From assembly GCA_002011125.2 (NCBI GenBank), contig MTMF02000009.1, positions 1,064,989 to 1,128,988 on the forward strand: a stretch of DNA of 64,000 bases. The letters are read 5' to 3'. Each line of letters begins with the position of its first letter. The first letter of the stretch is position 1. Position numbers and translations under genes: made by a program. This DNA comes from Candidatus Hydrothermarchaeum profundi. Lineage in GTDB: Archaea > Hydrothermarchaeota > Hydrothermarchaeia > Hydrothermarchaeales > Hydrothermarchaeaceae. The notes below the pieces were generated by a model. It worked only from the letters and a program-made list of their open reading frames with translations. It did not search any database and had not been told where the DNA came from. Shown here piece after piece: positions 20,299 through 64,000 of the stretch.

Positions 20299-23200
20299 TT
20301 ATGAGAGTTCCTTTATCTTTTCCTCGATTTTTCGTAGCTTTTCCTGGTTTTTCTTTCTTAATTCAGTATAGGTCTTTCTTGATATCATGCCACTGCTATG
20401 TTGCTTCTTTAGGGTTTCTAACAGCTTCTTTATTCTCTCCTTTTCCCTTCTAAGTTCTATAAGCTCATCAGACATTTTTGGCGGGACATTCTGTGGTATA
20501 GTTGTAGAGGGCTTAGATTTTTTAGCAGGCTTCTGTTCAACTTTTCTAGGAGGACCTATCCGCATAGCAGTTTTCTCCGCAAAACTTTCAAATTTCTTGT
20601 ACCACTTCATGCCGAAGTATACAACGAGACCTATTGTGAGGATAAAGAAAAACGCAGTAATGCCAATCCACATGTATGGAGTCTCGGGAGTAGGAGTAGG
20701 CGTCTCTGTAGGAACAACTTTGACTACTTCTACAGGAGTAGCTTTATCGAGAATACTGTTAACCTGATCTATATATTTTAAGCATCTCTCTATAGATTCT
20801 AGTACTTTGGGATACTCGCCATTTTTCAGATACTCCTCCGCATTGAAAATTTCATTCGCAGCTTTATCTAGTAAATCTAAGGAGTTAGAAACATTTTTTC
20901 CCTCGCTTATTGCTTTGAATACTCTCCTCTCAACTGTTCTTAATCTTTCATTGGCAGCATCTATTTCAAATTCAAAAAGTTCCTGCTTTGAGTCAAAAAT
21001 ACGCAGAATAATATCCTTTTCATCTGTTGCTTCAGTTGAAACAACTTTAACGGTTAAAATTCTAGGACCTGGAGAAGCGTTTTGGGGAACCTTAATCTCT
21101 ATAAGGACATCAAATATATCTGCAGGAAGAAGTTCCGATGTTTGGTATTTTATCATCTCATACCAATCTTCAGGGATTCCGGTAAGACTAGCCTCAACCG
21201 AATGTAGGGTTTCAGTTCCAGAATTATTCACAGTGGCAACAAGATATACCCAGCCCCCTCTCTCTAATAAGATCTCTTCAGGATGAATATCTTCAATCTT
21301 GATTTCTGTTTTTTTGAGTATCTCCTCCTCTTCAGTAACTCCTCCACCACCGCCACCACCTATTATGGGTGGAGGCAATACTTCAGCAGCGCCTCCACTA
21401 ACAATCAAAGGGATCTCGGCAACGGCAGGTGGCTTCTCAGGGTCGTATATTACTGTTCCCCGTAGCGTATATTCCCCGGGATCTAACTCTACATTGGTGA
21501 AATTCCTCTCGAATCTAAGCTCTACTCCGGGTGGAGGATTTTTAACCGTCTCCGTATAACTATAAGACGTGCCTACGATTGTATAAGTAAGAGGCAGATC
21601 CTGGATATTCGGGTCTCCAAAATAAGTAAGCAAAATAGTGAAATCTGCATTATCTCCTTTATTTATTTCTATTTTACTCTCAGCAAACCTAATATCCGTT
21701 ACACCATATTTTATTCTGAATACTTCGATATCCCACGCCCTCATAGTACCTACCTTAACCTCAAGAAAAGCCAAATAAGAGTCGACTGCAGTATTACTCG
21801 GATTAAGGTCCTCGGTATACCTATATAAGCCGTCACTAACTTTTGTCATATTTCCGATCTCAAGCCTCCTCCACACATCATAGGTAGAATTCCTGATAAC
21901 TAAGGTTAAAGAATCAGGCTCAACTCCTAGACCCGTACCCGCGTCTAGTACTTGAACAGTTATTTCCATGGTTACATTTTCGGTTGTGCTTAGATAATAG
22001 GTAGGTTGTACTCCTATCTTCACAAACAAGCTTTGATATACATCGAAGAGCACTATCTCCTCAGCTTGGGACGCTCCATACCTTGCGGTACCTTCCAGTC
22101 TATATGTTCCCGGAGTCGCGTTAATATCTAATGGGATATCTGCTATCTTAGAGGGGCTAACTACATCTGTGAAGGTTGCATTATAGATTATGTTTCCATC
22201 AGGGTCTTTTAGGAGTAAAGAAACGTTAGCTCCATCTAGATATTGTCCATCAGCATTTTTTATCTCTCCCTTTACCGATACTGTATCGCCCGCCCTATAC
22301 GGTCCCCCAGGATATAAATCGAATTGCAATGCTCCGCCTTCTAATACTGTAAATGTATCTATCACAGTACTTGAAATCGGTCCATAATATGCGGTCGCTG
22401 TAACAATATATGTACCCGAAGTTGCATTATTAGGTAAGGTATACTCAGACTTATATGCTGGTCCAGGGATCAAAGTTGAATTTTCTTCGTATAAGATAGT
22501 GTTATCTAGTGATACTGTAACTGTGAGATAGTCAACCTGGAAGAGTTGATTGTCCTTAAGGACCGTGCTAAGTATCGTTACGTTTTCGCCTGGATAGTAT
22601 AAATCTCCTGCACTTGTATCAACCGATAAACTACCGACGAAAAATACCCCAGAATCATAAGCAAAGACATTCTGCCCAATATCTGTATAATTGACATCTA
22701 CACTCCAGTAATAGAATCCTTCTACGCCTGTAAACTTGAAGCTTGTTGAACTAATACCCTCTGAGGATGTAACTAAATATTTCGGCCAGCTTCCATCTAA
22801 CCCAAAGTGATTACCGCTTTCATTGTTTAGTAGAATATCAACGATTGCAGTCGCAGCCTCTATTGGTTCTCCTATAAGATCAGTTACATTGACTTGCATA
22901 CTGCCCGAGTCATCTGGTTCAAAAATAGTTGAGCTAGTGAGTACAGTGAGTCTGAGTTTTGCGAACACACTAAAGTTTTTTGCATCGGATTCTCCCCATC
23001 CTCCAGCAGAGTCTTGTGAGTATACTACTATAGTATAATTTCCTCTGAGTAGAGTATCCTGATAATTCGCAGTCCAATTTGAAGAGTTTTCAGGATCATT
23101 ATAAAGATCTATTTGGTGAATATTACCGAAAGAGTCTGTTATATTAGCTTTAACCCATTCGATTCCTTTGCCAATCCTATCCGTCAAGTTTGCTTTTATA

Positions 23201-26190: not shown

Positions 26191-26208
26191 TTCTTTTCTC
26201 CTGAATTA

Positions 26209-26266
26209 ATATATGTTGAGATATTATTATATGTTGAGCATATAAAGTAAATACACGTATATACTT
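26209..26266 (-). promoter_or_regulatory. Upstream region of the 1,963-aa gene sharing motifs with the wHTH promoter
   Basis: On the - strand, AAGTATATACGTGTATTTA matches 27305-27323 at 17/19 and AATATCTCAACATAT matches 27353-27367 at 14/15. TATATGTTGAG occurs twice with an 18-bp period. Confidence 0.55.
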
Positions 26267-26283
26267 AGAATTTCTACAACCTT

Positions 26284-27294: not shown

Positions 27295-27304
27295 AAAAAA
27301 TTAA

Positions 27305-27367
27305 AAGTATATACGTATATATAAAGTATTTCCAATATACATATAAAAATAGAATATCTCAATATAT
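27305..27367. promoter_or_regulatory. Divergent promoter region with a perfect palindrome and a shared 29-bp motif
   Basis: TATATACGTATATA palindrome at 27308-27321; ATATATAAAGTATTTCCAATATACATATA (27317-27345) matches 29102-29130 at 27/29. Confidence 0.65.
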
Positions 27368-27371
27368 TCAC

Positions 27372-27593
27372 ATGAAACTTTCCGAGGTAGATAAGAAAAT
27401 TTTAGATTTTTTAACGAGACATAATAACCATGGACTAGTTTCTACATATAAACTTGCAAAAGAAACAGGGATTTCATGGGCAACAGCGATTACACATTGT
27501 TACAAACTGAAGTCTTATGGATATATAGAGGGGAGGGCTGAAAAGCCTAAATATGGGGATAAGGATACAATGGTTTGGTGGATCCCTAAATAG
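27372..27593 (+). CDS. Small winged-helix DNA-binding protein
   Basis: LSEVDKKILDFL...STYKLAKETGISWATAITHCYKLKSYGYIE is a wHTH pattern. Confidence 0.82.
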   Translation: MKLSEVDKKILDFLTRHNNHGLVSTYKLAKETGISWATAITHCYKLKSYGYIEGRAEKPKYGDKDTMVWWIPK

Positions 27594-28889: not shown

Positions 28890-29101
28890 TTACTCTCATT
28901 TTTAATTAAAGTTGAGCGTACTATTTAAGGCTTTTTGTTAAGTTGTAGCATGCTATATGATCGTGGATAGCAAGATTATTAGTAAAAATAACATTCTATA
29001 ATTTAACAAACTAATAAAAATTTCAATTGATAGTGGATTATTCAGTTCAGTTCCTTTAATTAATACTAAAAAACATATCATAACTTAACAAATATATATC
29101 C

Positions 29102-29130
29102 ATATATATAGTATTTCCCATATACATATA
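29102..29130 (+). promoter_or_regulatory. Second copy of the 29-bp promoter/operator motif, upstream of the giant gene
   Basis: ATATATATAGTATTTCCCATATACATATA; 27/29 identical to 27317-27345, same orientation. Confidence 0.65.
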
Positions 29131-59300: not shown

Positions 59301-61864
59301 AATATGATACAAGTGACATTACTATAAAACTGGATTTCTCAGGCGTTGCTTATAGTAATATTAGCAATTTAGCGGTCTATAGATGCTCAAATTGGAGCAT
59401 AGATCTCAGGAAGTGCTATGACTCTGAGTGGACTATGCCAACCGTAACAAAACTAGACGAAGAAAATAAGATTATTGAAGTTTGGACTTCAACTCTCTCA
59501 GCATATGTGGTCGGAGAACCAGATATATCAAGAGATATAACATCACCGGAAATAACCATAACTTCCCCAGCACAAGAAACAACATCGAGTTGCTCAGCAG
59601 ATGTTGATATGAAGGGTAGCATCGAGGAAGACGTTTCTGATCTTAGTTGGGTCGAGTATAGAATTGATGGAGGAAACTGGACGAGAGCTAATATTTCCCT
59701 GGGTACAAGTATGGTGGAAGACCTTAGTTTGACATGCACAAGCAAAAAGAGCTGCGAATTCCAGTTAAATCTCACAGATCTTTCATATGGTGACCACACA
59801 GCTGAGATAAGAGCCAATAATAGCGCGGGACTCCTCTCAGATACAGAGAAGCGTACATGGAGCATTATTTACTGTGGTTCTCCCCCGGCTCCGCCACCAG
59901 CCGGAGGCGGCGGCGGTGGAGGCGGCGGAGTAGCAGCGCCTGTTGTAAATATCACTCCACTAAAAGAAATGTTGAATGAAAGCTTAGAGGAAGTAGCAAA
60001 GGAACCTAAAGTTCCATCATTTAGTGTAGAAACAAATCTTGGCAGCGTAGAGTTGTATCCAGGTGAAGAGAAATGGTATTCAATTTGGATCACTAATCAT
60101 CTCAAGAGGAATCAGTCGGCTAATCTAACTGTAGTTGGCAGAGCAGCTAAGCATATTGAGCTTTACTGGGACGGTATTAAACTCCATACTAAAGATACGA
60201 TAACAATAGATCCTCAATCAACCGAAAACGTTAGAGTGAGAGTTTATGCGTTATCAGCCGAGAAAGAGGGTATCTCTACAGCAGACATAGTGATAAAGAT
60301 AGACGGTAAAACTCACATAGTACCTGTAACGGTGAAGGTAGTTGAGAAGAAAGAGCCGTTGATGGATGTTAAGGTGGAGGCTATTACGAAGGAGCTTTCG
60401 TTGGGTAGTCCTTTGAAGTTTTATGTTTCTCTTTATAATCTTGGTTTTAAGGAGAGGTTTGATGTTCATCTGGTGTATGCGGTTAAGGAGTTGGAGACTG
60501 AGAGGGTTTTGACTAAGGTTGAGGAGGAGATGGCTATTGAGACTTCTCTTTCTTTTGTTAGGGTTATTCCGGCTGAGAACCTTAGCTTGGAGGCCGGTAG
60601 GTATTATATTGAGGCGGCGGCCTTGTATGAGAATAAGTCTGCTTCTGCCGCGGATATCTTCACGGTGTTTAAGCCTTTCTGGACTACAACCAAAAAAATA
60701 GCAATGATAGCACTCTTCCTTATCACAACCGCGGGTGCATCCGGATATAGAGCAAGGAAGTGGTATATTGCTAGAAAGCAAGCAGCTGCTAGATATCTCC
60801 ATGCTACGCAATACAAAGATCTGCCTAAAGGACCCATGTGGATTGGGAAGATAGCTGAGACTGATATAAGAGCAGAATTTGATCCTAATGACTTAAGAAC
60901 TCATATGATTGTTGCAGGCGCTACTGGATCTGGTAAATCAGTAGCAGCCTCCGTAATCGTAGAAGAGTTACTCGAACTAAAGATTCCAGTTGTGGTATTT
61001 GATCCAACGGCCCAATGGACAGGATTTGTCAGGCCCTGTAGGGATGAGAATTTCTTCAAAGTATACTCGAAGTTCGGTATGAGAAGGGAAGATGCGAAAC
61101 CCTATCGGGGCCTAATATTCGAAGTCACTGATCCTAATGTAAGAATAGATTTCAAAAAGTATATGAATCCTGGTGAGATCACGATATTCACGTTAGATAA
61201 GCTAAAGCCTGGCGAGTATGATCAAGCCGTTATGAACATAGTTGATACCATTTTCGACATGGGCTGGGAGGAGTCTACTGAGTTAAAAATGGCTATTGTA
61301 TTTGATGAGATCCATAGACTCCACGAGAAATATGGTGGTAAGGGTGGTTATATCGCCTTAGAAAAAGGAGCAAGAGAATTCAGAAAGTGGGGTATAGGCC
61401 TCATAATGGTTTCTCAAGTACTTGCGGACTTCAAGGAGGAGCTTAAGGGTAATGTATTGACGGAACTACAGCTTCATACCAAGTCGTTGAGCGACGTTGA
61501 GAGAGTAAAAGAGAAATACGGAGAAGAGTACGCCAGTAGGTTAACTAAGCTAGAAGTAGGCGTGGGGATGATGCAGAATCCAAAGTATAATGGTGGAAGG
61601 CCCTTCTTTGTACACATCCGGCCGGTTAAGCACGAAGCCCATAAGTTGCCTGATCGGGATCTCGAAACCTATAAAGAGTTTGATAATCTATTGAGCATGA
61701 TTGAGACTACTATCGAGAACCTCAAGGCAAGCGGAGTAGACACTTTCGATCTCGAGCTAGAATTCAAACTCGCTAGAGATAAATTGAAAGAAGGTAGATT
61801 TAGAATGGCCGAGATATATGCTGAATCGCTTTTAGAGAGTTTAAAAAGGTATGAAAGAAGATGA
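29357..61864 (+). CDS. Giant (10,835 aa) membrane-anchored repeat glycoprotein fused to a cytoplasmic HerA/FtsK/VirB4-like (DUF87-type) ATPase
   Basis: Uninterrupted 32,508-bp ORF with a hydrophobic N-terminal signal, about 24 repeats, a G9 linker and a TM helix near 60695-60750. Walker A GATGSGKS at 60917-60940, Walker B AIVFDEIH and REFRKWGIGLIMVSQ. Confidence 0.92.
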   Translation: MSNSSRERPVLSVWILPFILVLTILASLMANSQTQDANITILNPYEHPRLGGNWTIYFTTTGEGSLSIYDHSFPEEVEFVDLYKKKNSEWKVVPVTINDDLIQAYWAYSQGKVVFKVKTPKKHILEIRYGEQKVYAHNFASLSVNLNAPSRVLRGDIINISGYAMNHNLSSVYINYSLPEGFDIIFGESKKYCGGSPICWNNITINTSRVSLGEHVVKLEACSYDICESNTTKLVIENVKTVVGEPLQGRAIIGLPVEWKQDFNIWNPSLRKVYNYTLPLPLDAFDINAGSIRVIDNVLQEIDGGENLSFSVKYYTSPPLLTSEDKLLLLQDLLPDNSIDIKVYEDGVQLFSASNIDMLKELQLKVPVKAITVFQNSSVAYENVEVNVSVEGVLLKNKTKLEPIRAELSNGSLFWIIPRLENSETFYIISSYNKSQGEARVGEIVRWRLDLGKRIVEYSTPSPKILETEILENGKWSKAINIKSDVLLENVTVNSTIPEVNFTKGKKLKIKPKKSYFKVNENPEFEVEVDTNISLIWTNGTTPLFNESTDVTNETSHSVRFLDTDNNGFSDTIVWTIPYLDEQNYIIEKDSGIITAEVEDSHGVRAGVKPKVINVGGGKYKLEIPSTRAIKPGLYKLVVESNGEREELWFQWGLISINTEKAVYHPDEDVKIIMVVLDKEGHLVSGADVNLIVNPPIGRPTTYSTSDKTIVETQRGIYEAVYRASREGNYTLFASVKAQDVVSSIDSYFTVRDFYEFDILRNIPVTIDPRVGPFNSSIKVISYVGHGTLTLREYLPAVFDVNAGNAIIKEEGDTIILEWKNLTNGSKVVYKFNTPFIWPYLYMIGPVEIIYDNGTYVEARPWMLAVDPSEEICNWYEDTVSWTAFGTTNLGAIEYYNWTLDTPCPGSLDCYIANISVYIKYTDQGTGAGADPGQSYVQIANFTERNPDPSLANYSRYAAYSPDTAGGETVERWECGESTSPNTCSLSLGSGYNASDYYSVKIEVPAKYSAAVSSVKYLWCYNTSNPALVDANVTPARGGWGEIFNFTVNASDPQNSTVNISLWKSYSILDPTWILIDNYSLYPSDPPVIVNFTGRFFKQSDVDSTIYYKFNATDGSNTNETEIRSLIIEKDDIIIQHGSGNGTTVNRSDSLSNYSVNLTTIVFDTDNQTNVSDGIPGKLWITHDASLGYQVGDQEGASTLNGYLRASATDGVFNPDCNYKAGVQKWYMEITDNSYYKTNTSINYSGDNFTITILGDLSISSYNILPSATIEIGNNVTIISDVQDDCGSDIDDASVTFRIVNNTYGYDNTYSADFIPSSDDYRFNLTTNFSTIEGVYNVYINSYKEYHWNGTATTQFRLYYNPLLEDASVSASEIDVGQYLNFTVNVTDTFNDTVSIYLWTKKGIGNWTLENSTTCTDYVFQCTNCSDFVAYCYKQFSGGDAGTWSFKFNATDDKGNTRETDIGSFQVNNVTLVWNHVQGNDSLANRSGTQNTTLVLNITKQSDGSPITNEQVELWVSTEGDIEISSTKVMTNTTDSSGLVYFDFDPSCSINVGVQEWKGVMAGSAGYTNPDSWEDANLYLAVTVNGTLQNSIDEPNGDDNTTAGNIITLQGVIVDDCGNAMNITNGTGYATENIAFNLTNGGFTESCTPITLIGSNVYKCSWNTTGKPSGWYNVTFSADEDYYYGSTVTQYAPNTFFLFTPPVLEDYSVTPTSAGWGEGNFTFRVNVSDYTDYSGLTVNDTVSVHLWENPGSGWTEISPTNYACTGCDDEQFTWSKEYSCTEGGASEVGSIFYKINATDDFDGESQTETLSFTVEKDDAKIYNVTPSWNATINRSSGVTFIVQINDTDRNTPISNINEFGRIYVTIDADLGAWDSPIFSSTNATGYLNRTLTGGETGTWCTGGYKLGQGYWKAEIKDRACYKDNTTVDIPFILYGDLINTIQEPDGTQNYTKGAGSIRMNGTIIDDCSASITGSGTTVIFEISNGAYTDTCVGNPVGSYYICDWTPPQGAPLGWYNVTMTSSKSNYNNGSDTVNNAFFLRSVPRLENPSIQAGAWGQSPFNFTVTLKNDNNVTTYVYLWLYNASSGWNLEDTRICTDSECYSYQANFSRNFSKDEVGSWQYKFNATDISGATNNTLSPSSFEVLKDDVIVSYIAGDGVEVNRSSGSVILRVQINDTIRGNIVVDEGTSCAFWIEKDGVNYASALINTTDSLGYCTYYFTPGNDYGAGEQNWTAGTYNDPYYNNNNLSVAKYLIIYGDLSANISDPGDSNIGDLITIRGRVIDDNSSEVVGANVIFELRREPTDSWEICGVTYNETGSNAGWYNCTWNSTGKTAGSWDVRMKVSKSYHNPNETIEIDLFNLISQPPSGTGLSVTPPVGGWGETFTYNVSVSDPENDNVTCKLWVNTSGSWELKGSQIQTAPYNCSIQVSDYTTLDINSNYSFKFELNDSNNLVNTSLAYGEIEKDDTSLDILVNDEDAIRGQTIVFSGVLTDTDNGNPISGAAINLTKDGEYVPYSNTTNSTGGYVIYYTISSSEAFGGHNFSVIYEGSSSLKGSISSNISVNISPSLTLLDLTTDDNKGWGETWNFKVNVTSDPAAPSVTIWLQYNRSGSWVNINYTECADCTTTTTKIITSNWSRDDSNLTRYYRFYANDSNQNNATTPSGNVNIQKDDIVIQGEGGVGATINRSNSINLSSRVIDLDTGAYEVDINTTSAFSTWITADGENYTEVSEEKNETHFYYTFTPTCGGQYQLGTQKWKMNVSNAAYFKDNESAEYTITILGSLSNILIQPNGSTNYTIGDTIILRGNVSDDCGNAVTGATVSFKLETNGATYLCEGASVSDEGNGWYNCSWDSSGKLNGTWYNVTIIASKTNYWNGSDSIANAFYLSTRPVLEDVLVSPPTGGWGKSPYYYTVNVTDTDGNNVTIRFYLRNETGEWILRNSTSCVNCNDYIVNFSWSYSYTDVGTWFFKFNATDESGSTATTSGEENHTISKDDILVSYLAGDGVEVNRSGNDYVNLSTFITDTERNVNVTDASVKIWVTTDGTIFDNGTTVTPEGNYYVFQFNPPGAPSCNYSAGVQKWKMNITGDPRYLDNTSQEFSVKIYADMDIAILEPNSEDITIGDSITIIGNVTDDCGVPVTDASVFFNITRNGAYVGNCTATHVGGGNYSCSWDSTGKTEGWYNVTMISERSYYYNKTSLKSNAFRLVGAPKLDNPSYSTSSGGNGWGATYNYTITVTDTEEDTVTVYFWIKKAGGTWAYQGNQTCTNCSGYVMSFLKNFTCNDQGTWFFKFNATDQGGNTNTTSESDNYHNVEKDRVSFTHVSGNGTEATTVIPTTFKLYLGDIDKGEAVADGTEVIFNVTYDGTNYFEYGPNLTQGGNVSYSFLPNMSFTSGWQSWTGQHIEDSCYLYNISSIYVVNVTLKYPPYIENGTVSGVTGGVSKGWGETWNFSVWVKDVDDAVTVTLWKTDLSGYVEDSNWENISQQVYTDIGNWQQLNFSPIFTPSDMGTWYYKFNATDEATNTNSTQRSLNSNFTITKEGIIFEYDASWAENNESIPANRSGTQSKELLILVKDINGTPLSNFNVTFQIERKGEGTNTWWDYDVVTNSSGYANLSFDPTCDNASTVGVDERFEVGKQKWRVKVVGLSDYNDSYSDEYNLTIWGDTRIYFDYPLNQTYTLPNRVPFEGRIFDDCGESLPNAEVEFWALGATHYLCGNTSSGDAYEPVPGLYRCRNEGEDGWKTSDKPTGYYNATWNITLSYYYINNSISGRIVPITDNLTLAKSPGWFELTISANAPDLSEADVEPRRDGWGVKRNFSVKVTNQNGDVMNISLWYQPPAQAEILLAYTGNVTSNGSDIIYFRDISFDSSLSGQVMKFKFYASDNDGDSYTGAGDYNASGDATLADNEFYLEKDDVVIEYVSGNETTVSSSGVVGEPLTLRIYDSDRKTYNIAPSATVIFNVTVDGENYTTVNTSTTNDTGYAEGTFTATSPPFPAGVSKQKWVGYIPNSDSYYKYTLSNIYNVTIDINNPPDMTDEKVNGVTEGASEGWGFVFNFSVKVRDDKNATTNISLWVDTANTADYELINYTICDACGSAGWVTINLSAKFTASDIGSASYYFKAVDNTSNENVTSAHTFTIEEDEVTFEVDPNSNGTNIIVNRSANAQPLNLTVRLRDENGSYLGGGISNTLTISKVGVYPGATWDSGRTVITNASGYAVYEFTPTCDNESTSLVDEEYEVGLHSWYIKVDDSESLYQPNQSDYYTFKVMGTLMNTIDEPKGNVTYDAGEIILIQGFIENYCGEPITTDVSNVWYNLTNGPYEYSCTNVTRTGANVYKCEWDSTGAQAGCYNVTMHSSMENYYDNETTKLAGTTFCLETPPSLQYANVSPREDGWGKNFTFSVNASDNEGDNVTVNLSYAIGSKSSAWYQILPSKTFTAGLNQTRLEWNKSYSCSEVGKTLFFKFYAIDTQGFTDETTASSYYIDGSDSFSITKDDVQILYSGGNNSEVNRSGNDTARLVLRVFDVDSNSYVNSTPTNVYFNVTIDGENFTRAYDTSGVSYATTNSTGHVVFDFNATCEHQVGQQKWIGYISGDSCYLNQVSSDYVLTVIGDLTTEINTGRANKSYYQNEDVDLWFEVRDECGSLIPGATLDVLVYYNSTLNYSCSPVTDHNNGTYNCTWQTANTTDYPTGAWKVRVISSKLPNYNNGSDIKTEAILLSSALNSAPELSNAVVEPNGWGGLTNYSVTVFDVDGDDVNVSLYENKSGSWVYIGSEICSTCSSSTQINFSVSHNWTDVGTMFYKFTAFDGTIETELIPASYQILKDNVSFLGVDGEASVNRSGTQTATLNFSVYDITNNSYVADYGKPEANCSVWMTKDYSSYYLSNISVTSNSLCTVEFDPDESYEVGVQYWKGGVYNDKYYADKNTSNRTILIIGDLYNAITTPDGDSYNIGQTVTIRFNVTDDAGKNLTGLTSQNFTISLEHNGNVYSCTDIVEEGNGWYNCTWNSTGAESGNYNITIISSATYYNNGSTIKENAFFIQAAPILENETVDPETKYWGSYFTFNVTLTDDDDTVTVRLWHRRNGTTTWYKINETTCVDCVGAVISFTRLYSSTEIDTWEWKFNATDGVSDVETTTKNLTVTKRNVTITLVYGDGGVVYRNGTDSLSLILQVKDAVDGSVLPISAGGGGFYVTTDYNNWGTRIDAPTNSSYLTTPPGEFDPDCTYLTGNQKWKGVYDGTSKYYSKETQNYTLNIYSSLSNTILEPLNSQPVQKGQSLLIKGYVEDECGGVEGASVTFDPYIGSTSYAALCASPAPEEGGGNYTCNLDTSLIDDADLGYYNITITSSKGAPYNYTTDVETEVNAFKLGFRPELVNSSVSPSSDGWGSNFTFSVRFRDREGDQGNITLWIAYNESGPWYPIVSRSETNSLWTTLTDIESFTKENFTSALNGVVYFKYNVSDSNGFTNETGVKNFALERDNVTISFVEGSGSVNRLGSNTITLKVRVNDTDAGNVPVGASVKGRIYTDVEYNDTTTDNDGYLYYILDPSCEPLYSAGPHTWVGGTFNDTYYDDENSSQSTFNVTGQLYNNLLEPLLGASFNVNDNITIRFYVSTDCSAEGNQTIDNATIELIHNQSGYTSSCSVITEEAPGVYNCTWDTSGKLEGNWSIRINSSKQYFNNASTLWVNHLMLDNNPPNATLANQTVEVVPAQGPWGISYAYRVNISDPEGDNVSCILYANTNGTWVMRGSVTVEGGSGVCTIILPNSTFNKADYYYNYSGNNVKFYFAIDDGQSGEAFNTTIVYSPSFEKDDVVVTYGGLGNDTYLVRNSDNQILRLRINDTDAGIPANNANGTIWITNVSGIWIPIGSNTTDNNGYLSINFTPDCSYSIGKQNWTGGTDGDLYYVNRNTTDNLVITIMGGLSSNAWSLNESHSLDSNFTRGEENITIRANITDECSALVSSANVEFTLSQGSQNYTCNVVEEASQVGYYNCTISTNDTWSAGWYNLTVTSSKSNYQMDSNLIENFLFIETKPKLTEPNVTTSNGSNVGGYSEIFNFTVKLTDEDLDEVTVYFWYKKVGDNWTLLGTEQASGIGVVVYKTLTQKPLGNYLAKFNATDPRGYINETETVNFTIEGDDVNFIALEGNGSSVVRTSGSVNLTVRVTDLDTDPESVVDAFTQGKIWVTTDAELNIWDSGISAQTYPDSDGVLRTLSDEQITFSPDCNYKVGIQKWKAGLTDTGDKYKEQNSSEWLVTITSSLNANITYPINKTFLRGDSILVNGTVGDECTTSVEGANVTFNLTHMSTGDNLTCQAQDDGEGNYSCTISTTGLSDIWLGYYSITMIVEKPHYTSAYDFENRSLFLASAPVIDSATLTLPKGKVSEAKWGDGIYQWDINIIDNDQDNVTVELWKKIGSGNWVKINSTVSVYPARTISFKHYLNCSDIGTNYWKVNVTDIWGYTATTDGTDNFGVDKDDTTAVQVTPDGVEVNRSDTEPGNTLIITYRIWDSSKGDYAEGANGFFNITYDGVNQTPNRYNTSDSNGYVRFYFNPENNFSVGPQTWRGGVINDGCYYDSNVLERTLYINGTLTLNLTQPANGSVFAVNDNITIRLNISSDGSEVPSDAVVTIQLIDKNNNVESCTPVLNEGGENASWFNCTWDTTAHVGGAWDILVNASKSYFNFNSTLFIDWFNLTNTPPSTANINVTPSIGGWGRNFTFTIDVDDTQNDDVTCTLYTNTTGVWIERGNDTVYGGHGTCTVTVSPFLGNGFNYSDVGNDNYFKFRVDDKTEGNVFEVNSSGPIIEKDTIQLIYIQGDNSEVNRSNSQTTTFVLFVNDTDKGIGVQDPNVSVKFNVTTDGSSYNFDGENYTNSSGYVIYYFDPGDIYNIGIQNWTAYVVNDLAYKNAVLGVYTTTILGDLNYQIEEPQGSRILRGNNVTIRLNITDDRSTPQLVPNAAVKIILTSNLTGQSFVCNVNNETGANAGYYNCTFETNSTVPAGAYNITVEASKSYYNNISEDVPYIAGVSSFFLETKPHIENPVLITTTANGSLGDGGWGEDYNFSVYVYDYDMDTLTVKLWINLSTGWTQKGTTLVDGNGTVSFIFNDVDTINKDEVGDRSFYFWVSDSIYNNQTDYQNFTVGKDDVSFTLISGNSTFNRSTPGDYFLNVSIYDSDLGVKMESGITTNFWYTKDGSTFVRSPNEFTDSNGEAKTKITISCGGGFSVGPQYWFNEFSGGAYYKHVNSTIYTYTVVTEPLTAVIETPNNEEPHLRGASDPINISVKVTDDCGGVENASLVINILGPSIKECTNIVNISGGYYNCTVSDTSTYSYGIYNVTSNVTKAFYNGTYVISESAFAIASAPGLPTIWADTPQTPYYTDNSWGETWRFYARVEDADGGDVNVTLWSNKSGAWELVNSTMCYSCYGGDIYFYENNLFTGDDIGKQYFKFNVTDQYNYTTESLDNVTVNPDDLEINIISGFSETVNREGNDTALFVIRIKDKDRTKALGIDVYLGEGRSGMFWVTTSGIENGPVDSGTSNTTESNGYLRLNFDPDSNIHGVGLQYWDGGIIGDPWYTSRNLSQDKGQKYEVTIIGQLKNNITNPTYGTNITVGSLVDINVSIFTDNSTQDYQENTSVVIKVKSSTGSWINCEPVISEGDGKYTCTWDTTGLEGGNWSILVNSSKQYYNDNATIFWNWTYLKNTPPNATGLKVSPSTGGWGENFTFSVNVTDAQNDTVTCTLYTSNDNGATWILRGNDTVIDTYPGPAICSVQVSPYFGNGFNSSDIGKNHTYKFEIKDTTIGNEFNVSPVSGPQIEPDDVTIVYVWNSSDIVNRDTGNIDFILKVYDNDLKNYAEGANITIWITTDGSNYSGNSSLTNSSGDILISFDPSCDYTAGVQYWFGNITDWRFKSANTSIYLLTIIGSLDNPFTQLTTPNVGSEFLRGENISFSGSVYDDCSNIVNDANVSFISTHTSSGNEYLCQATYNNTDQVYKCTRNTSGMEARYYNVTMNISKAYYDDYAITYENRFYIITEPEFSGISVNPTQGGWGEVFSFTVNITDDDLDNVTLWLYARRYGTAEWNNLNSTSIVGALNETVTLTASRFDSVTYNAWQGPDNETWEFVFRARDNSSRNNDLYSSTVNFTIEQDDVRFEIVSGDGESIWRNGTDTERLVVRAIDADTNQPLPASMSINFSITVNGTDFETSFKNITNSSGYAVYEFSPTCSYTTGIQYWKVTSDNNQYYKNSESDNYTIILYGNLSSTIELPDISVPGYKAYAYLRGTDVPISGLLEDDCGNPVENATVTYTIEKGNPVKIAPGASVGLGYYNYTWTESGGKPYGYYNITMSSSKDYYASNTTKKENAFYLADDPYLGTPALTVEDDYGWGEDFTFSVPLEDWDGDIVNVTLLKKKEGENWTVIDSKNATTSTVQFIESFTPDDMGLNYYKINATDPWGFSTESTIKNFTIIEDDIAVYINEGGGKDVNRKTGSQLLEGWFKDIDTGQGVPDGVEGKIWVTLDGSTYTLEFTCNTTTKNSIPGYCGVYYTPPCSSEVGTQYWKVGVTDSRYKSVNASDSITVKGQLNTTVVSPDDGIILNRGTTEVLLNATVWDECGNEKTYEQNLEVRWYNSTSTVSSNLLVTGNNVTWQVPDNYELGPETIYADAGNLPNYNNANTNCEAYCGNVSVDIYGWSQLYSIAPVNGTILQAWEGREDIRCVVKDPDLEWPGWIVGYPVEFFKDGISVWNDTTDDNGEAIWGRLIASEGWYLAEESYGWHNITCRIKDNASKFYNVSVSEISSLIFVNRTLVLDDFSANPATIYRNDSFSPNESVISVTLIDSDATIGGEENATVFFYNHTMDYIGECKTDSSGTCSIIFNPSDTIAPGIYDIYMNATSSDPKVANLSISKISLTVLGKLNVNITSPEPRTYTKYSSIPLTAIITSENGDQITDAYVAWYNSSGDIIAVGNGSETWSTGSLAVQKTGEQVITANASKDYYDSNSGVVTIVIGGEAKVEYLAPKSDTNYPDPISISCLVKDVTYDTGIENYTVDFWKSYSGEEYTYLSTEKTNSSGIANYTWVPPKKGTVTFRCNITSESNYTVNSTRGDNVSSFTITIRDIKPPTISSVVIYPNQSFEAYTTVNISANITDDSGIENAWVRIITPNESVVIIDMQNVSSIYSAQYDPPVDGRYKVEIHAVDLPPDSNENMVYSYIYVWGKANATLNNTPISVNLWNVFYNKGETFELSLNFTNYGNGTAYAVNITYNDTDPEVDLEFIPDSWECGNVNKSESCAINVNVTIPSATTQRTIIVQANATWRNPDRTINISTVTTAAVVKDNRVIEFAVIPDMPFITPHGTISSTSIVLLSSGNANVGKTNVSARDGDEINKLHDYCPDCKVRIENEKIYYISSLPWGTNKTMLLTVEVPTYQPPGTYITHVWAEPENAASIQFPLTIEIPGNASWQVSPNDLGNTTSFVPLPGQYTEGKIGDIVITNIGNVRIDYSASTPSISDMNGTTIQAIFTDTGTSENYAYPGNSIVLEVNYSIPYTAEMGTYCDNIRIDVTNAESVPPEEAEPTWIYIPFCLEVTEPKTYWNHTPEVISAEVLHGTSGYLANVTIVNTGNTPAIIHVSTNGSISTNITNISLEVGESISVPLNYSVNYTTQRIYDISYLITDNETVNITRYTIVNLTVHPYSFEITYPTEADRAVNKVAGEILTILVNATYGMPISSGMKFTVEISNETETIIFNDSEVNSSYDPDTGLWAINVTIPELGDPSAPERVASINVSANYTDIGFVLSDYEQNALVYKDTVKPILFVSVTPWFGLINDTINLSVMATDAGGINKISGNVTIENETYDLNLTYTGNYENTYTYEGNFNNTRRSGIYHVSIVAWDTSNNSEIIETDFGIYSPISIGGVVEGANDTIVNANFTLYEAGYYGDSSRILYNISSNESGYNETIANTTYDVGIRVYKHEVIFKGITADILSRAIKVDRISENISISNPPAIGYAGLAIEAEYDTSDITIKLDFSGVAYSNISNLAVYRCSNWSIDLRKCYDSEWTMPTVTKLDEENKIIEVWTSTLSAYVVGEPDISRDITSPEITITSPAQETTSSCSADVDMKGSIEEDVSDLSWVEYRIDGGNWTRANISLGTSMVEDLSLTCTSKKSCEFQLNLTDLSYGDHTAEIRANNSAGLLSDTEKRTWSIIYCGSPPAPPPAGGGGGGGGGVAAPVVNITPLKEMLNESLEEVAKEPKVPSFSVETNLGSVELYPGEEKWYSIWITNHLKRNQSANLTVVGRAAKHIELYWDGIKLHTKDTITIDPQSTENVRVRVYALSAEKEGISTADIVIKIDGKTHIVPVTVKVVEKKEPLMDVKVEAITKELSLGSPLKFYVSLYNLGFKERFDVHLVYAVKELETERVLTKVEEEMAIETSLSFVRVIPAENLSLEAGRYYIEAAALYENKSASAADIFTVFKPFWTTTKKIAMIALFLITTAGASGYRARKWYIARKQAAARYLHATQYKDLPKGPMWIGKIAETDIRAEFDPNDLRTHMIVAGATGSGKSVAASVIVEELLELKIPVVVFDPTAQWTGFVRPCRDENFFKVYSKFGMRREDAKPYRGLIFEVTDPNVRIDFKKYMNPGEITIFTLDKLKPGEYDQAVMNIVDTIFDMGWEESTELKMAIVFDEIHRLHEKYGGKGGYIALEKGAREFRKWGIGLIMVSQVLADFKEELKGNVLTELQLHTKSLSDVERVKEKYGEEYASRLTKLEVGVGMMQNPKYNGGRPFFVHIRPVKHEAHKLPDRDLETYKEFDNLLSMIETTIENLKASGVDTFDLELEFKLARDKLKEGRFRMAEIYAESLLESLKRYERR
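32430..55400 (+). repeat. About 24 diverged tandem protein repeats (mostly ~330 aa) within the giant ORF
   Basis: GWG-x-x-F-N-F-T-V anchor at about 32468, 33480 (degenerate), 34499, 35519, 36488, 37091, 38057, 39020, 39671, 40769, 41483, 42509, 43538, 44498, 45473, 46457, 47460, 48464, 49433, 50456, 51434, 52436, 53423 and 54428. Confidence 0.88.
60353..60703 (+). repeat. 351-bp exact direct repeat, copy 1 (membrane-proximal Ig-like domain of the giant protein)
   Basis: Identical by eye to 62251-62601 (offset 1,898 bp), GAGCCGTTGATGGATG...AAAAAAATAGCA. Confidence 0.95.
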
Positions 61865-62676
61865 GAGTTTTATTGTTAATTATAATATTATGCACCTTTG
61901 ATAAAGTGAGCGTGGTCTACGGATCTGGTATAAGTGTAGAGACCGATATGGTAGAGCCTGTATTTGCTCCTGGAGAAATTGGGAGGTATTCTGTATGGAT
62001 TACAAATAATCTGAAAGAAAATCAAACTATAACTATTTCTCCTGCTGGTAAGATATCTAACTTGTTGGAAGTTTATTTTGAGGGCAAAGAACTCTCAACT
62101 AGTAATTTTAAGCTTAGTACTGATACGACGGAACATCTTGAGTTAATTGTTAATGCTCCGGAGAATCCAGGGATATATACAGGATATCTTGTTTTATCAT
62201 CTGGATGGGGAACCCAAGCGATACCAATATCAGTAAAGGTTATTGATGATGAGCCGTTGATGGATGTTAAGGTGGAGGCTATTACGAAGGAGCTTTCGTT
62301 GGGTAGTCCTTTGAAGTTTTATGTTTCTCTTTATAATCTTGGTTTTAAGGAGAGGTTTGATGTTCATCTGGTGTATGCGGTTAAGGAGTTGGAGACTGAG
62401 AGGGTTTTGACTAAGGTTGAGGAGGAGATGGCTATTGAGACTTCTCTTTCTTTTGTTAGGGTTATTCCGGCTGAGAACCTTAGCTTGGAGGCCGGTAGGT
62501 ATTATATTGAGGCGGCGGCCTTGTATGAGAATAAGTCTGCTTCTGCCGCGGATATCTTCACGGTGTTTAAGCCTTTCTGGACTACAACCAAAAAAATAGC
62601 AGTTCTACCTATATTCGCTGGGTTAGGTCTGATATGGTATAAGAAAAAAACAGGAAATATTGGGGGGTTGAAATGA
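61861..62676 (+). CDS. Small membrane-anchored two-domain protein, mini-paralog of the giant protein's stalk
   Basis: Signal peptide; domain 1 is similar to the giant's (YSVWITNNLKENQ vs YSIWITNHLKRNQ); domain 2 is identical over 117 aa; TM and short basic tail; ATGA overlap with the giant gene. Confidence 0.88.
   Translation: MRVLLLIIILCTFDKVSVVYGSGISVETDMVEPVFAPGEIGRYSVWITNNLKENQTITISPAGKISNLLEVYFEGKELSTSNFKLSTDTTEHLELIVNAPENPGIYTGYLVLSSGWGTQAIPISVKVIDDEPLMDVKVEAITKELSLGSPLKFYVSLYNLGFKERFDVHLVYAVKELETERVLTKVEEEMAIETSLSFVRVIPAENLSLEAGRYYIEAAALYENKSASAADIFTVFKPFWTTTKKIAVLPIFAGLGLIWYKKKTGNIGGLK
62251..62601 (+). repeat. 351-bp exact direct repeat, copy 2
   Basis: Identical by eye to 60353-60703 and read in the same frame. 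Confidence 0.95.
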
Positions 62677-62781
62677 TAATAAATATTCATGGGCATCCAA
62701 AATATGAGCGGGTATGTATTATAGAGAGGGATAGTTTTATAGAGTATTACATATAATTATTTAAAATTGAGGTTTGCATAG

Positions 62782-64000
62782 ATGGTCTTTTGGCGAAAAA
62801 AGGAGGAAGAGGAAAAAGAAGAAGAAATAGAGCTTTTAACCGATGAGGAATATGATGCTGAGGCAGAGTTACAGAAGCAACTTGAAGCGGAGAGGGAATA
62901 CGAGAGGAAGTTGCTAGAGAAAGAAAAGAAAGAAGAAACTAGAAGGGAAGGAGAAGCATTAACTCCTGAGAGCCTCCTCCTTAAAATAGAAAAACTTGAA
63001 GGGAAGCTTGCGACATTTGAAGAGGCAAGATCTAGAATAGATGATAGGATAATGAGGGTTTCAGAGCAAGTAGGCGAATTAAGATCAATGATTCTTGAAA
63101 GAGAAAAATCATTTGGTTTTCTCGAAGCCGAATTTGAAAATATTAAAGATATTTTTGAAACAGTTAAGCCAGATGAATTTGCAAAGGAGTTAGATAGGAA
63201 AGAAAAGAAGATAATAGAAAATAAGATTCTCATAGAAAGACTCGAAGAGACTGTTGACCGCCTTGGAAAAGAGGTTTCAGAATTCAGGAAGTTGATTGAT
63301 AAAATAAAAAGTTTCGAAAACTTGGTGGAGATTGCGCAATCTGTTAGCGAGAAAGTTAGTGCAGTAGAGGAAACAAAAAAGTATACCGATAGGTTATCGG
63401 CAAAGGTGGAAACAATTTTTGCAGAGCTTACTGATAGGTTAACCGAACTCGAAGAAGATAGGAGTAAGATAATAAGGTTTGATGAGCTTTCAAAAGAGTT
63501 GCTCAGATCTCTTGATAACCTATATGTAAAATTAGAAGGAGCTGTTACTAAAACCGAATTATCTGAAGAATTAAGAAATCTTGAGAATTTTTTAGTAGAA
63601 AGATTTGCTGCTTCAGAGGGAATGAATGATAGATTAATCAGCGCAGAGGAGGCTATAAAGAATCTTGAAAGAAGGATTCGTTTATTAGAGCTGGAGAAAG
63701 TCAGTATGGAGATAACTGATAGAATTAGGAAAATAGGGCCTGAGCTGAAAGAAATGCGTAGAATTGAAGAACTCACGAGAGAAAGTCGAGAGATCCTAGA
63801 ACTAATGAAAATAGTTGATGAGGATTATAAGAGAGGAGCAATATCTGAGGAGAGTTATAATGAGATTAAAAGTAAGAATCAGAAAAAACTAGAAGAAATA
63901 AAAGATGCACTAAGGGAAGATTTCAAGAGACTAGAGAAGATGCTTGAAGTCGAGCTGACTCCCCCGGAGGTTATCAAGGAAGAGAAGGAAGAAATACCAA
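62782..64000 (+). CDS. Long Glu/Lys-rich coiled-coil protein (3'-partial, over 400 aa)
   Basis: ATG 62782 after GAGGT; MVFWRKKEEEEKEEEIELL...RVSEQVGELRSMILE...; the frame appears open to the window end, so it is absent from the ORF track. Confidence 0.88.
   Translation, partial: MVFWRKKEEEEKEEEIELLTDEEYDAEAELQKQLEAEREYERKLLEKEKKEETRREGEALTPESLLLKIEKLEGKLATFEEARSRIDDRIMRVSEQVGELRSMILEREKSFGFLEAEFENIKDIFETVKPDEFAKELDRKEKKIIENKILIERLEETVDRLGKEVSEFRKLIDKIKSFENLVEIAQSVSEKVSAVEETKKYTDRLSAKVETIFAELTDRLTELEEDRSKIIRFDELSKELLRSLDNLYVKLEGAVTKTELSEELRNLENFLVERFAASEGMNDRLISAEEAIKNLERRIRLLELEKVSMEITDRIRKIGPELKEMRRIEELTRESREILELMKIVDEDYKRGAISEESYNEIKSKNQKKLEEIKDALREDFKRLEKMLEVELTPPEVIKEEKEEIP

Follow-up and report, generated by a model that had tools for sequence, protein, structure and literature searches.

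A candidate multi-gene cell-surface locus around a giant SPEARE-type protein in Candidatus Hydrothermarchaeum profundi

Results

Composition of the locus

The subject of this study is a locus for cell-surface proteins in Candidatus Hydrothermarchaeum profundi, located in a stretch of 64,000 nt of contig MTMF02000009.1 (hereafter the window), whose largest gene encodes a protein of more than ten thousand amino acids (aa) with an immunoglobulin-like (Ig-like) ectodomain and a predicted cytoplasmic ATPase (the giant). A previous reading of the window, made from its letters and open reading frames (ORFs) only and referred to here as the sequence-only reading, had taken it for a candidate undescribed multi-gene cell-surface system of at least 44 kb, in which two large surface proteins diverge from a central regulatory cassette and which probably continues past position 64000. 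Both large genes were recovered, P0001 (1,963 aa) on the minus strand and the giant gene (10,835 aa) on the plus strand (Table 1), and inspection of the next stretch showed that the locus does continue: the gene of the helical protein CC1 ends at 64218, and that of the coiled-coil protein CC2 follows to ~ 66400. The locus thus spans 46 kb, from 20299 to ~ 66400, and its parts co-occur and cluster in other genomes. A coupled mini-paralog and a coiled-coil protein had also been proposed 3' of the giant gene, and indeed the ATG of the mini-paralog overlaps the TGA of the giant gene (ATGA), while CC1 begins at 62782.

The host is a Hydrothermarchaeota-like archaeon that does not belong to DPANN, with a genome of 2.19 Mb in 19 contigs (GC content 0.39, completeness 97.65%, contamination 1.46%) that is not reduced as in DPANN symbionts. 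For the neighborhood survey, ORFs were called in the best 80 of at least 576 ATPase loci with 6-kb flanks and searched with the window proteins (blastp). In addition, 40 genomes of relatives were compared, five of them from families f1 and f9 and 35 from other families; the metagenome-assembled genomes (MAGs) of f1 and f9 are only 62–82% complete. Among the relatives, G002 belongs to the same family as the host and G011 to another family of the same order.

Table 1 Features of the locus (window coordinates; TM, transmembrane; HTH, helix-turn-helix; IS, insertion sequence; AF2, AlphaFold2)
Feature	Position	Strand	Remarks
P0001, second surface protein, 1,963 aa	20299-26190	-	signal peptide; N-terminal domain without Pfam match
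P0001 cytoplasmic tail motif	~20302-20481	-	'G-x-IS-x-K-TY-x-EL-KK'; shared with CC1
P0001 TM helix	~20608-20676	-	preceded by extracellular stalk
24-nt motif, copy 1	26251-26274	+	upstream of P0001
AbrB/SpoVT(MazE)-type + PhoU regulator, 336 aa	26284-27294	-	PF04014 1.6e-8; PF01895 1e-5
24-nt motif, copy 2	27309-27332	+	divergent AbrB-PhoU/HTH promoter region
24-nt motif, degenerate fourth copy	27335-27358		next to copy 2
HTH protein, 73 aa	27372-27593	+	HTH_24 21.7 bits vs 21.9; all HTH matches below cut-offs
KaiC-like single-domain ATPase, 251 aa	27598-28353	-	1.1e-46
Truncated IS6/IS240-type transposase remnant, 179 aa	28350-28889	-	InsA zinc ribbon and first 63 of 139 DDE_Tnp_IS240 positions
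24-nt motif, copy 3	29094-29117	+	240 nt upstream of giant gene
Giant gene	29357-61864	+	single uninterrupted ORF, 10,835 aa
Supermodule array	32414-55312	+	24 tandem units, giant aa 1020-8652
Poly-Gly (G9) hinge after CGSPPAPPPA	59903-59929	+	region of giant aa 10183
Membrane-proximal Ig domain (repeat copy A)	60353-60703	+	exact 351-nt repeat
TM helix and predicted cytoplasmic HerA-type ATPase	60704-61861	+	RecA-like core ~60836-61618
C-terminal three-helix domain of ATPase	~61652-61858	+	AF2 model
Mini-paralog, 271 aa	61861-62676	+	signal peptide, two base-type Ig domains, TM helix, 15-aa tail
Repeat copy B in mini-paralog	62251-62601	+	100% identical over 351 nt to 60353-60703
CC1, helical protein, 478 aa	62782-64218	+	three-helix core and tail-type motif
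CC1 conserved core, aa 56-275	62947-63606	+	three long helices
CC1 tail-type motif, aa 328-379	63763-63918	+	match to P0001 tail
CC2, coiled coil, 730 aa	window-equivalent 64208 to ~66400	+	overlaps CC1 by 11 nt; SMC-like

Reality and architecture of the giant gene

The giant begins with a basic and then a hydrophobic stretch resembling a signal peptide, and a region of ~ 1,000 aa precedes the array. The array consists of 21 full supermodules (~ 325–340 aa, three Ig-like domains each, with the conserved landmarks GWG, VNRS and DDCG...YNC) and 3 short ones (~ 215 aa); two partial copies lie beyond it, up to aa 9175, and further Ig-like domains fill the space before the hinge. As proteins, the supermodules are 21–40% identical in pairwise comparisons, and no DNA self-repeats were found inside the gene with blastn at 1e-10. 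Since the repeats are diverged and do not match one another as DNA, a misassembly driven by repeats is unlikely. Sequencing runs point the same way. In run X1, possibly that of the source sample, positions 44001–60382, corresponding to the last 16.4 kb of the ORF up to the 351-nt repeat, lie on a single contig of 21,180 nt with 0 differences (Logan contigs); run X2, from another study, yielded 17 pieces, all at least 99% alike and with 0 other letters; and run X3, from a third study, holds a strain that is 95–99% identical. Among five runs considered, none listed as holding the stretch was of RNA. Moreover, G011 carries a colinear giant orthologue of 11,078 aa, with 42% identity over the first 1,350 aa, 37% over an array alignment of 6,302 columns and 49% over the base and ATPase. 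Because of this colinear orthologue, both length and module number are, as judged by alignment, conserved between the two families.

Searches of all 10,835 aa against Pfam returned, apart from the ATPase, Ig-type families only (Big_1, Big_7, MG2, NPCBM_assoc and FixG_C). The ectodomain of 10,448 aa holds 560 N-X-S/T sequons (5.36 per 100 aa), compared with 182 ± 12 in shuffles of the same composition. The remaining ORFs of the genome have 0.44 per 100 aa, and the cytoplasmic part of the giant, 365 residues, has none. These counts fit a heavily N-glycosylated ectodomain of ~ 10,400 residues.

The hinge is followed by two Ig domains, a TM helix (aa 10449–10468; residues 2–28 of the 386-aa piece in the AF2 model) and the basic stretch RARKWYIARK. 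The layout of Pro/poly-Gly hinge, Ig domain and TM helix that the sequence-only reading had noted as shared was found again in both large proteins: the hinge reads PPAPPPA-G9 in the giant, P0001 has PPPII-G7, and both lie ~ 220–260 aa ahead of the TM helix. Such a base is not restricted to this locus: a run of at least five Gly occurs 220–301 aa ahead of the TM helix in 27 of the 69 family proteins with enough upstream sequence, and the two-Ig base was detected in the ATPase proteins of 76 of the 80 loci. The hinge would give the fiber freedom or serve as a processing site. The available text of Hamm et al. 2019 (PMC6642349) places the ectodomain of its giant proteins in the fraction above 315 kDa and the TM and cytoplasmic part in that below 315 kDa; these data may leave room for cleavage, for which the poly-Gly hinge is a candidate site.

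The cytoplasmic ATPase domain

HerA, FtsK, TraB and the coupling proteins are ring-forming polymer pumps, and HerA, FtsK, TraB and CedD pump DNA. Which of these is closest to the cytoplasmic end of the giant? In Pfam, the DUF87/HerA central domain scores 49.8 bits against a cut-off of 23.2 (6.2e-13), T4SS-DNA_transf (24.2 vs 20.1), AAA_10 (27.6 vs 27.5) and HerA_C lie just above their cut-offs, and ResIII (22.0 vs 22.5) and FtsK_SpoIIIE just below. The best NCBIfam model is CedD (NF053655; 43.1 bits vs a cut-off of 600, 2.2e-11); the HerA models (39.1 bits vs 800 and 27.3 vs 970) and TraC (21.8 vs 567) likewise stay far below their cut-offs. A profile built from 43 sequences matched eight HerA-type PDB entries (1.5e-12 to 3.3e-7), the sole coupling protein being DotL at 0.003. 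In the AF2 model of the last 386 aa (pLDDT 91, pTM 0.88), the TM helix is followed by a RecA-like core and three C-terminal helices, and the first Foldseek match is HerA of S. solfataricus (4d2i, E 8e-15, TMq 0.56), with anti-phage HerA proteins next and the coupling protein TcpA at rank 25. The core has the Walker A motif GATGSGKS and the Walker B motif VFDE; in the 43 sequences, G72, G75, G77 and K78 of Walker A, D201 of Walker B, R224, R227 and S237 are invariant (43/43), and E202 and Q238 are kept in at least 90%. Because profile, fold and motif matches all point to HerA, the domain is assigned, on these predictions, to the HerA clade of the FtsK-HerA superfamily, with its catalytic motifs intact.

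A HAS-barrel is absent before the RecA-like core, where the AF2 model has the TM helix and a short hairpin and where the alignment with HerA starts at chain residue 118. PADLOC gave the ATPase generic HerA and mad8 matches only and no specific pair of HerA and partner; an ordinary HerA-like frame of ~ 516 aa lies elsewhere in the host genome. In a quick IQ-TREE analysis of 43 rows (40 of the 80 loci, 2 representatives and the window sequence), G011 was placed apart from the window and G002, with forks left open, and no history of transfer is drawn from it.

Family membership and phyletic spread

The giant very probably belongs to the SPEARE family of giant nanohaloarchaeal surface proteins. 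In the parts of Hamm et al. 2019 available to us (PMC6642349), SPEARE proteins are described as very long nanohaloarchaeal proteins, mostly extracytoplasmic and with one TM helix near the C-terminus, whose most conserved, intracellular part was read as a type III restriction enzyme (ResIII-like); relatives are named in Woese-, Aenigm- and Micrarchaeota and in Altiarchaeales, laminin-G is reported for all SPEARE proteins, and regions like serine proteases and toxins for the protein of Ca. Nha. antarcticus. Reva et al. 2023 (PMC10266531), likewise as far as its available text goes, describe SVXNc_0300 (9,409 aa) and BNXNv_0298 (8,880 aa) as having a signal peptide, ~ 75 Ig-like domains, a TM helix, an ATPase and a coiled coil, re-read the intracellular part as a VirB4/TraG-like ATPase, propose a type-IV-like injector and doubt serine-protease and toxin domains in their own proteins.

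At E < 1e-3 the family comprises 1,114 cluster representatives, of which 352 remain at E < 1e-30. The loci, at least 576 in contigs with one genome per species, are mostly from DPANN, with some labeled Halobacteria, Methanosarcinales, Heimdallarchaeota and Hydrothermarchaeota. The window ATPase is 56–61% identical to those of the Nanohaloarchaeota MAG loci L048, L054, L059, L073, L087 and L093 and 48% identical to that of a 7,378-aa Nanohaloarchaea 'DUF87 domain-containing protein'. In all 150 representatives listed, the ATPase is C-terminal; 88 of them end at most 20 aa past it, and 52 carry more than 100 aa more. Among 55 family proteins found by a search at 4,924–15,670 aa in a set of 5.8 billion proteins, in which the window and G011 giants are not listed, the longest has 7,883 aa, and none has 5,998, 8,553, 8,880 or 9,409 aa. 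Other family members carry laminin-G-type domains (PF13385 or PF02210).

Within the 40 relatives, strong orthologues of the ATPase occur in G002, G011 and G019, and CC1 occurs in G001, G003, G011 and G019; all five genomes of f1 and f9 have at least one component, compared with 0 of the 35 genomes of other families. The orthologous locus of G011 keeps P0001, the giant, CC1 and CC2. Besides a giant, G019 holds minimal versions of the module: on contig C115 (locus L022, 3-4923), two tandem members of ~ 670 aa, each with a signal peptide, short ectodomain, TM helix and ATPase, precede a CC1-like gene. In the complete chromosome of an Aenigmatarchaeota MAG (L098, CP070801.1, 6001-7128), an internal stop interrupts the ATPase region with CC1 still 3' of it; the gene may be broken or the stop a sequencing error.

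The linked helical protein CC1

The sequence-only reading had named the gene neighborhoods of homologs of the ATPase and of the protein encoded from 62782 (CC1) as the place to look for a shared system, and components scattered elsewhere would have spoken against one. What was found is a CC1 homologue in 69 of the 80 loci, adjoining the ATPase gene and in 68 of them on its strand, together with the phyletic pattern limited to two families described above. In 55 loci CC1 overlaps the ATPase gene or lies within 100 nt of it, in 7 the gap is 134–324 nt, and in 7 it is 793–1,694 nt; in each of the last 7, a small TM gene lies in between. Of the 11 loci without CC1, four hold 0–1,909 nt of downstream sequence and seven hold 2.9–6 kb. 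With a hidden Markov model (HMM) of the CC1 core, every positive locus yielded a single matching ORF and the other 11 loci yielded none, while one of 5,051 ORFs matched in the host genome; therefore, the linkage does not reflect cross-talk among coiled coils. The giant and CC1 are, in our assessment, quite probably functional partners.

The CC1 core is 25–45% identical across phyla and was modeled as three long helices (pLDDT 86); the C-terminal part varies from 231 to 1,123 aa among the homologues, and the protein is highly charged and has no signal sequence. It could not be assigned to a family: Pfam (44 members scanned), NCBIfam and PADLOC gave sub-threshold coiled-coil families at most, the core model had 0 matches in PDB at E <= 10 (Foldseek), no WXG/LXG match was obtained, and matches in the ESM Atlas were unnamed archaeal clusters. 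PADLOC likewise matched neither CC1, the mini-paralog, the KaiC-like protein nor the AbrB-PhoU regulator. A fusion of CC1 to the ATPase in other members was considered and rejected: 52 of the 150 representatives extend by more than 100 aa, and none of these has a CC1 core at E < 1e-3. Predictions of the complex of ATPase residues 40–386 with the CC1 core gave ipSAE 0.00 in both runs; as controls were not run, these values carry no weight on binding either way. CC2 was found in Hydrothermarchaeales only, in 1 of the 80 loci.

Mini-paralog, exact repeat and small TM proteins

The exact shared domain claimed in the sequence-only reading was recovered between the giant and the mini-paralog at 100% identity over 351 nt; it takes in the Ig domain next to the membrane and reaches the first residues of the TM helix. 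In X1 the repeat forms one contig of 351 nt with a depth of 176, compared with 88–91 in its flanks, as expected if the genome really holds two copies; the X1 contigs showed no joint indicating a deletion between the copies, and in X3 a 569-nt contig passes unbroken through the copy of the giant. The only clear orthologue of the mini-paralog is in G002, where it has no DNA identity to its giant, so the idea of an ancient or general identity was rejected. The identity is read as recent gene conversion in this strain and suggests that the giant and mini-paralog may need the same base domain, e.g., because they pack together.

Small genes coupled to the 3' end of the giant gene also occur in the seven wide-gap loci and in L099. 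The encoded TM proteins start with a signal peptide, which is followed by a single Ig domain, a helix outside the cell, the TM helix and a tail; the helical motif at the end of this tail is that of the C-terminus of the giant. The mini-paralog sits at the same position but differs in its two base-type Ig domains and short tail. A homology of the C-terminal module of P0001 to these small proteins was rejected at the sensitivity of the small-TM HMM, which did not match P0001.

P0001 and its tail motif

The ectodomain of P0001 has Ig-like domains (two NPCBM_assoc and one MG2), the PPPII-G7 hinge (21340-21360), an Ig domain and a helical stalk. Orthologues, as judged by the N-terminus, occur in G002 and G011. 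The cytoplasmic helical motif that had been claimed as a link between parts of the locus was found between the P0001 tail and CC1 aa 328–379 (i-E 1e-4), but at least five other proteins of the genome carry it as well. Five P0001-like ORFs of other loci with visible C-termini have a TM helix and the tail '...G-x-IS-x-K-TY-x-EL-KKK...', and an HMM of these tails matched 15 of the 426 ORFs of the 80 loci: the 5 training proteins, 9 of the 69 CC1 homologues, in which the motif always lies directly after the core, and 1 C-terminal fragment. We lean slightly towards counting P0001 as part of the system.

In the host genome, the motif 'G-x-IS-x-x-x-Y' ends a MinD/ParA-like ATPase and two proteins with signal peptide and TM helix and occurs three times in a coiled-coil protein of 501 aa (C9_1564034-1565107 (-), C9_497022-498443 (-), C9_1558962-1559741 (+) and C9_1805189-1806694 (-)); the motif may serve this archaeon as a general module for coupling in the cytoplasm. 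An assignment of the P0001 tail to SHOCT (E 0.026–0.028, below cut-offs) was rejected as resemblance only. A 2,252-aa frame elsewhere (C9:930878-931675 region; L107/L108) has weak similarity to the P0001 N-terminus (E 3e-8 and 5e-6) and is probably another large surface protein.

The region between the two large genes and the flanks

The upstream motifs that had been proposed to join the parts of the locus correspond to a 24-nt motif, ATAYAYNYATATAYWWAGWATTTC, whose three exact matches in the 2.19-Mb genome all lie here. With up to 3 mismatches, there are nine matches genome-wide, five of them within these 3 kb. The genome-wide count is a fairer control than shuffles, in which 0.01 matches were expected compared with the 3 observed, a comparison that is partly circular as the pattern was built from these copies. 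Copy 3 lies in a 52-nt stretch that is 79% identical to 27294-27345. As a putative locus-specific operator, the motif would link P0001, the regulators and the giant gene in their expression, and the cassette probably regulates the locus in this genome. The dead IS6-like element of the sequence-only reading is indeed a truncated remnant, present as a single copy in the genome (DDE_Tnp_IS240 25.5 bits, below the cut-off of 27).

In G011 the space between the two large genes is occupied by a membrane protein and a PIN protein, and three KaiC-like genes and a Roadblock-like gene follow its P0001 orthologue; the KaiC-like gene of the window is thus read as a lineage-specific neighbor. Upstream of both of its large divergent genes, repeats of the form GTTTACAT-N-GAC(GTAAAC) were observed (C14 22308-22343, 22597-22612 and 24859-24876; blastn E 0.4), possibly another operator that serves the same co-regulation. 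In some family members, DUF835, listed as an inactivated KaiC domain by Galperin et al. 2018 (PMC5847659, in the part of that paper available to us), follows the ATPase (P0150, 2.9e-21; P0104, 6e-10); such fusions are rare, found in 1 of 55 long family proteins and 2 of 9 short representatives picked. A loose link to KaiC-type signaling, not a core feature, is possible. Also observed were, at ~ 7 kb from the locus, a multi-TM protein of 632 aa that has Ig-like repeats and, by eye, a KaiC/DUF835-like C-terminus (L001:8173-10071 (-)) and, ~ 10 kb beyond the locus, a 264-aa KaiC-like protein with a Walker A motif (L001:11492-12286 (-)).

Window positions 1-20298 hold housekeeping genes (SRP54, KsgA, thermosome, FKBP, tRNA-Leu and radical-SAM proteins), and CC2 is followed by a CheR-type methyltransferase gene and then genes of the queuosine/archaeosine type. 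Within the former part, 1.3 kb (16685-17986) contain no ORF of at least 60 aa, only a 57-aa frame, and no Rfam or tRNA match, between a 217-aa ORF without Pfam match on one side and a HEAT-repeat gene on the other.

Discussion

We consider it likely, with a probability of roughly 0.6, that the locus encodes a SPEARE-type surface complex with a glycosylated fiber, a HerA-type ATPase base and a cytoplasmic scaffold. By analogy with HerA and FtsK, the cytoplasmic ATPase domains would form a hexameric ring under the membrane, so that six fibers would share one base; with ~ 100 Ig-like domains of roughly 4 nm each, a fiber would reach several hundred nanometers. CC1 would dock on the C-terminal helices of the ring, a docking site in common being argued from the small TM proteins of other lineages, which carry the C-terminal helices of the giant, and the tail-type motif of CC1 would recruit P0001-like proteins to the same scaffold. 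Where a fiber has bound another cell or a surface, ATP hydrolysis might then move a polymer through the ring. This last step, drawn by analogy, is tentative, and we hold it to be somewhat short of probable; that the polymer is DNA is a first guess, made because HerA, FtsK, TraB and CedD are DNA pumps, and one that we rate as unlikely.

Several observations weigh against this picture of a SPEARE-type complex. Hexamerization, the docking of CC1 and the substrate are themselves inferred; one TM helix per protomer offers little for building a channel; and Pfam scans found no nuclease, relaxase, pilin, VirB6-like or channel protein in the locus. No laminin-G (Laminin_G/LamG, E <= 0.01), protease or toxin family was found across the 10,835 aa of the giant in three Pfam scans. 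CC1 is absent within 2.9–6 kb downstream in 7 of the 80 loci, and in genus g2, of the same family as the host, CC1, a small HTH protein and CC2 stand beside pyruvate carboxylase genes, away from the giant. P0001-like ORFs without an ATPase are rare (7 of the 80 loci within the 6-kb flanks), and the P0001 tail motif, which recurs in at least five unrelated proteins of the genome, among them a MinD-like ATPase, may be a generic module. As for the cassette, the 24-nt motif has no match in G011 with up to 4 mismatches, and blastp within the 6-kb flanks found AbrB-PhoU and the HTH protein in 0 of the 80 loci and KaiC in 1; CheR, from outside the cassette, was likewise found in 0. The central regulatory cassette of the sequence-only reading therefore stands as a set of genes present between the two large ones and not as a conserved part; on this comparison, AbrB-PhoU, the winged HTH protein, the KaiC-like gene and the IS remnant are not conserved partners. 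Finally, the ATPase of L050, labeled Methanosarcinales, is almost identical to that of L048 from Nanohalarchaeota (branch lengths 0.028 and 0.02), which suggests a binning error or a very recent transfer and shows that host labels of MAGs can mislead.

A rival reading is that the ATPase moves no substrate. It could instead assemble, cluster or tension a purely adhesive or structural fiber that would bind cells to minerals or to one another, or signal from the inside outwards, with CC1 and CC2 as a cytoskeleton-like anchor; we regard this as unlikely. The single TM helix per chain, a poor channel, fits such a role, as do CC2, a 730-aa SMC-like coiled coil, and the coiled coils or inactivated KaiC domain (DUF835, 2.9e-21) fused after the ATPase in some members, which hint at signaling; the 24 supermodules kept one-to-one between two families at 37% identity suggest selection on length. 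However, the catalytic residues do not vary across phyla, the closest relatives translocate polymers, and CC2 is limited to Hydrothermarchaeales (1 of 80 loci). An injector resembling type IV secretion, in which the Ig fiber binds a target and a VirB4/TraG-like ATPase exports protein effectors, is the proposal made for SVXNc_0300 and BNXNv_0298 in the available text of Reva et al. 2023 (PMC10266531), and the marginal matches to T4SS-DNA_transf (24.2 vs 20.1) and AAA_10 (27.6 vs 27.5), with TcpA at Foldseek rank 25 and DotL at 0.003, are in line with it. For the present locus it is nevertheless improbable: the eight best profile matches and the best folds are of the HerA type and not VirB4/VirD4, neither a further VirB4-like ATPase nor VirB6, VirB8, a relaxase or a pilin is present in the 46 kb, none of the genes conserved beside the giant is a candidate effector, and the host, with 2.19 Mb at 97.65% completeness, is hence no reduced symbiont.

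CC1 might itself be the exported substrate, as in type VII secretion, where an FtsK/HerA ATPase works with an adjacent helical-hairpin protein. No other gene is linked to the ATPase as constantly (69/80 loci), and CC1 has a core of three long helices and a variable C-terminal part (231–1,123 aa); yet it lacks a WXG/LXG match, is highly charged and without a signal sequence, has no channel component beside it, and shares with the cytoplasmic tails of P0001-like proteins a motif that places its partners in the cytoplasm, so that an exported CC1 is very improbable. Least credible of all is that the giant alone matters and its neighbors are coincidental, or that its ORF is an assembly artifact. 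It is true that neither the regulators nor KaiC nor the IS remnant is conserved, that CC1 of g2 is unlinked from the giant and that the assembly is of the metagenome type, with contigs breaking at the 351-nt repeat; but CC1 is adjacent in 69 of 80 loci across phyla, motifs are shared and the components co-occur phyletically, a single X1 contig of 21,180 nt covers the final 16.4 kb of the ORF with 0 differences, the 17 pieces of X2 likewise show 0 differences, and the gene has no DNA self-repeats and a colinear 11,078-aa orthologue in another family.

Returning to the complex of fiber, ATPase base and scaffold, a wider generalization can be formulated, although we consider it doubtful: SPEARE-type proteins may be, instead of symbiont 'spears', the visible subunit of a widespread archaeal envelope machine (at least 576 loci) that would transfer DNA or another polymer from one archaeal cell to another on contact, in DPANN as well as in free-living archaea such as Hydrothermarchaeota. 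Such a machine would consist of a HerA-type ring, Ig fibers of 0.2–11 thousand residues, a poly-Gly-hinged base of two domains and docked CC1, and in one subtype a second giant surface protein would also be docked via the shared tail motif.

The interest of the locus lies in what it adds to a conspicuous family. In several DPANN archaea, SPEARE-type giants stand out more than any other gene and have been invoked in the seizure of hosts by symbionts, and their cytoplasmic domain has been read in three ways: as a restriction enzyme, as VirB4/TraG and, in the present analysis, as a HerA-clade ATPase. The largest sizes of the family found here, 10.8–11.1 thousand residues as against 7,883 aa in the longest of the other members found, occur in a genome of 2.19 Mb, unlike the reduced genomes of DPANN symbionts. 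The family has a constant base module and nearly always one dedicated helical partner, CC1, and can recruit further membrane proteins via shared cytoplasmic motifs. A single odd gene is thereby turned into a defined set of parts (ATPase domain, CC1 and tail peptides) that is open to expression and testing, with a bearing on cell-cell contact, DNA exchange and symbiosis in archaea.

Comparison with known systems

Compared with SPEARE proteins, by published descriptions for the named proteins and by sequence for the Nanohaloarchaeota MAG loci, the giant has the same extracytoplasmic majority with Ig-like adhesion domains, a signal-peptide-like N-terminus, one TM helix near the C-terminus and a conserved cytoplasmic P-loop NTPase that matches DUF87 and coupling proteins and, more weakly, ResIII. 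It differs in its host, a 2.19-Mb Hydrothermarchaeota-like archaeon and not a DPANN symbiont; in its length (10,835 aa vs 5,998–9,409 aa as published); in that no laminin-G, serine-protease or toxin-like region was found; in the regular array of 24 three-domain supermodules; in an ATPase end without a fused coiled coil; in a downstream mini-paralog and CC1/CC2 instead of a second VirB4-like ATPase; and in an ATPase that profile and fold place in the HerA clade.

HerA itself (S. solfataricus 4d2i and the anti-phage HerA proteins) has the same RecA-like core and motifs and is the best match by profile and fold. Unlike in HerA, a TM helix and ectodomain replace the HAS-barrel, the NCBIfam score is far under the equivalog cut-off, and the neighbors are surface and coiled-coil proteins, with no NurA/Mre11/Rad50 or Sir2/DUF4297 partner. 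The membrane pumps CedD (Ced system), Streptomyces TraB, type IV coupling proteins and EccC/EssC (type VII) are P-loop ring ATPases that N-terminal TM helices tether to the membrane and that act at cell contacts, as proposed here for the giant. However, these pumps have no giant ectodomain, the locus holds none of the proteins that partner them, and the CedD score is 43 vs 600. Parts of type IV secretion (VirB4 with its N-terminal domain, a VirB6-like channel, relaxase and pilin) were absent from Pfam and NCBIfam scans of the locus ORFs. The earlier statement that no pilin, archaellin, relaxase, VirB6 or phage gene is visible agrees with Pfam scans of the listed ORFs, which found none of these families (ORFs of less than 60 aa were not scanned).

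Giant bacterial adhesins (Embp, the 7,651-aa protein of Mobiluncus and Giant1-5 of Apilactobacillus) and halomucin likewise display Ig-like domains in tandem on the cell surface, over thousands of residues. As far as the available descriptions go, these are secreted or anchored to the wall and lack an ATPase in the cytoplasm, whereas the giant spans the membrane and has a motor domain and cytoplasmic partners.

How much of the locus, then, is undescribed, as the sequence-only reading had it? The claim fails for the giant protein, whose SPEARE-type layout had already been published, and may hold for the partners and the base module. A search of the literature, supplements not covered, found no description of a Hydrothermarchaeota member, a CC1 partner, a poly-Gly-hinged base, a coupled small TM protein, a P0001-like fiber sharing the CC1 motif or a HerA-clade assignment. 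The giant is thus a new, very large, non-DPANN member of a described family.

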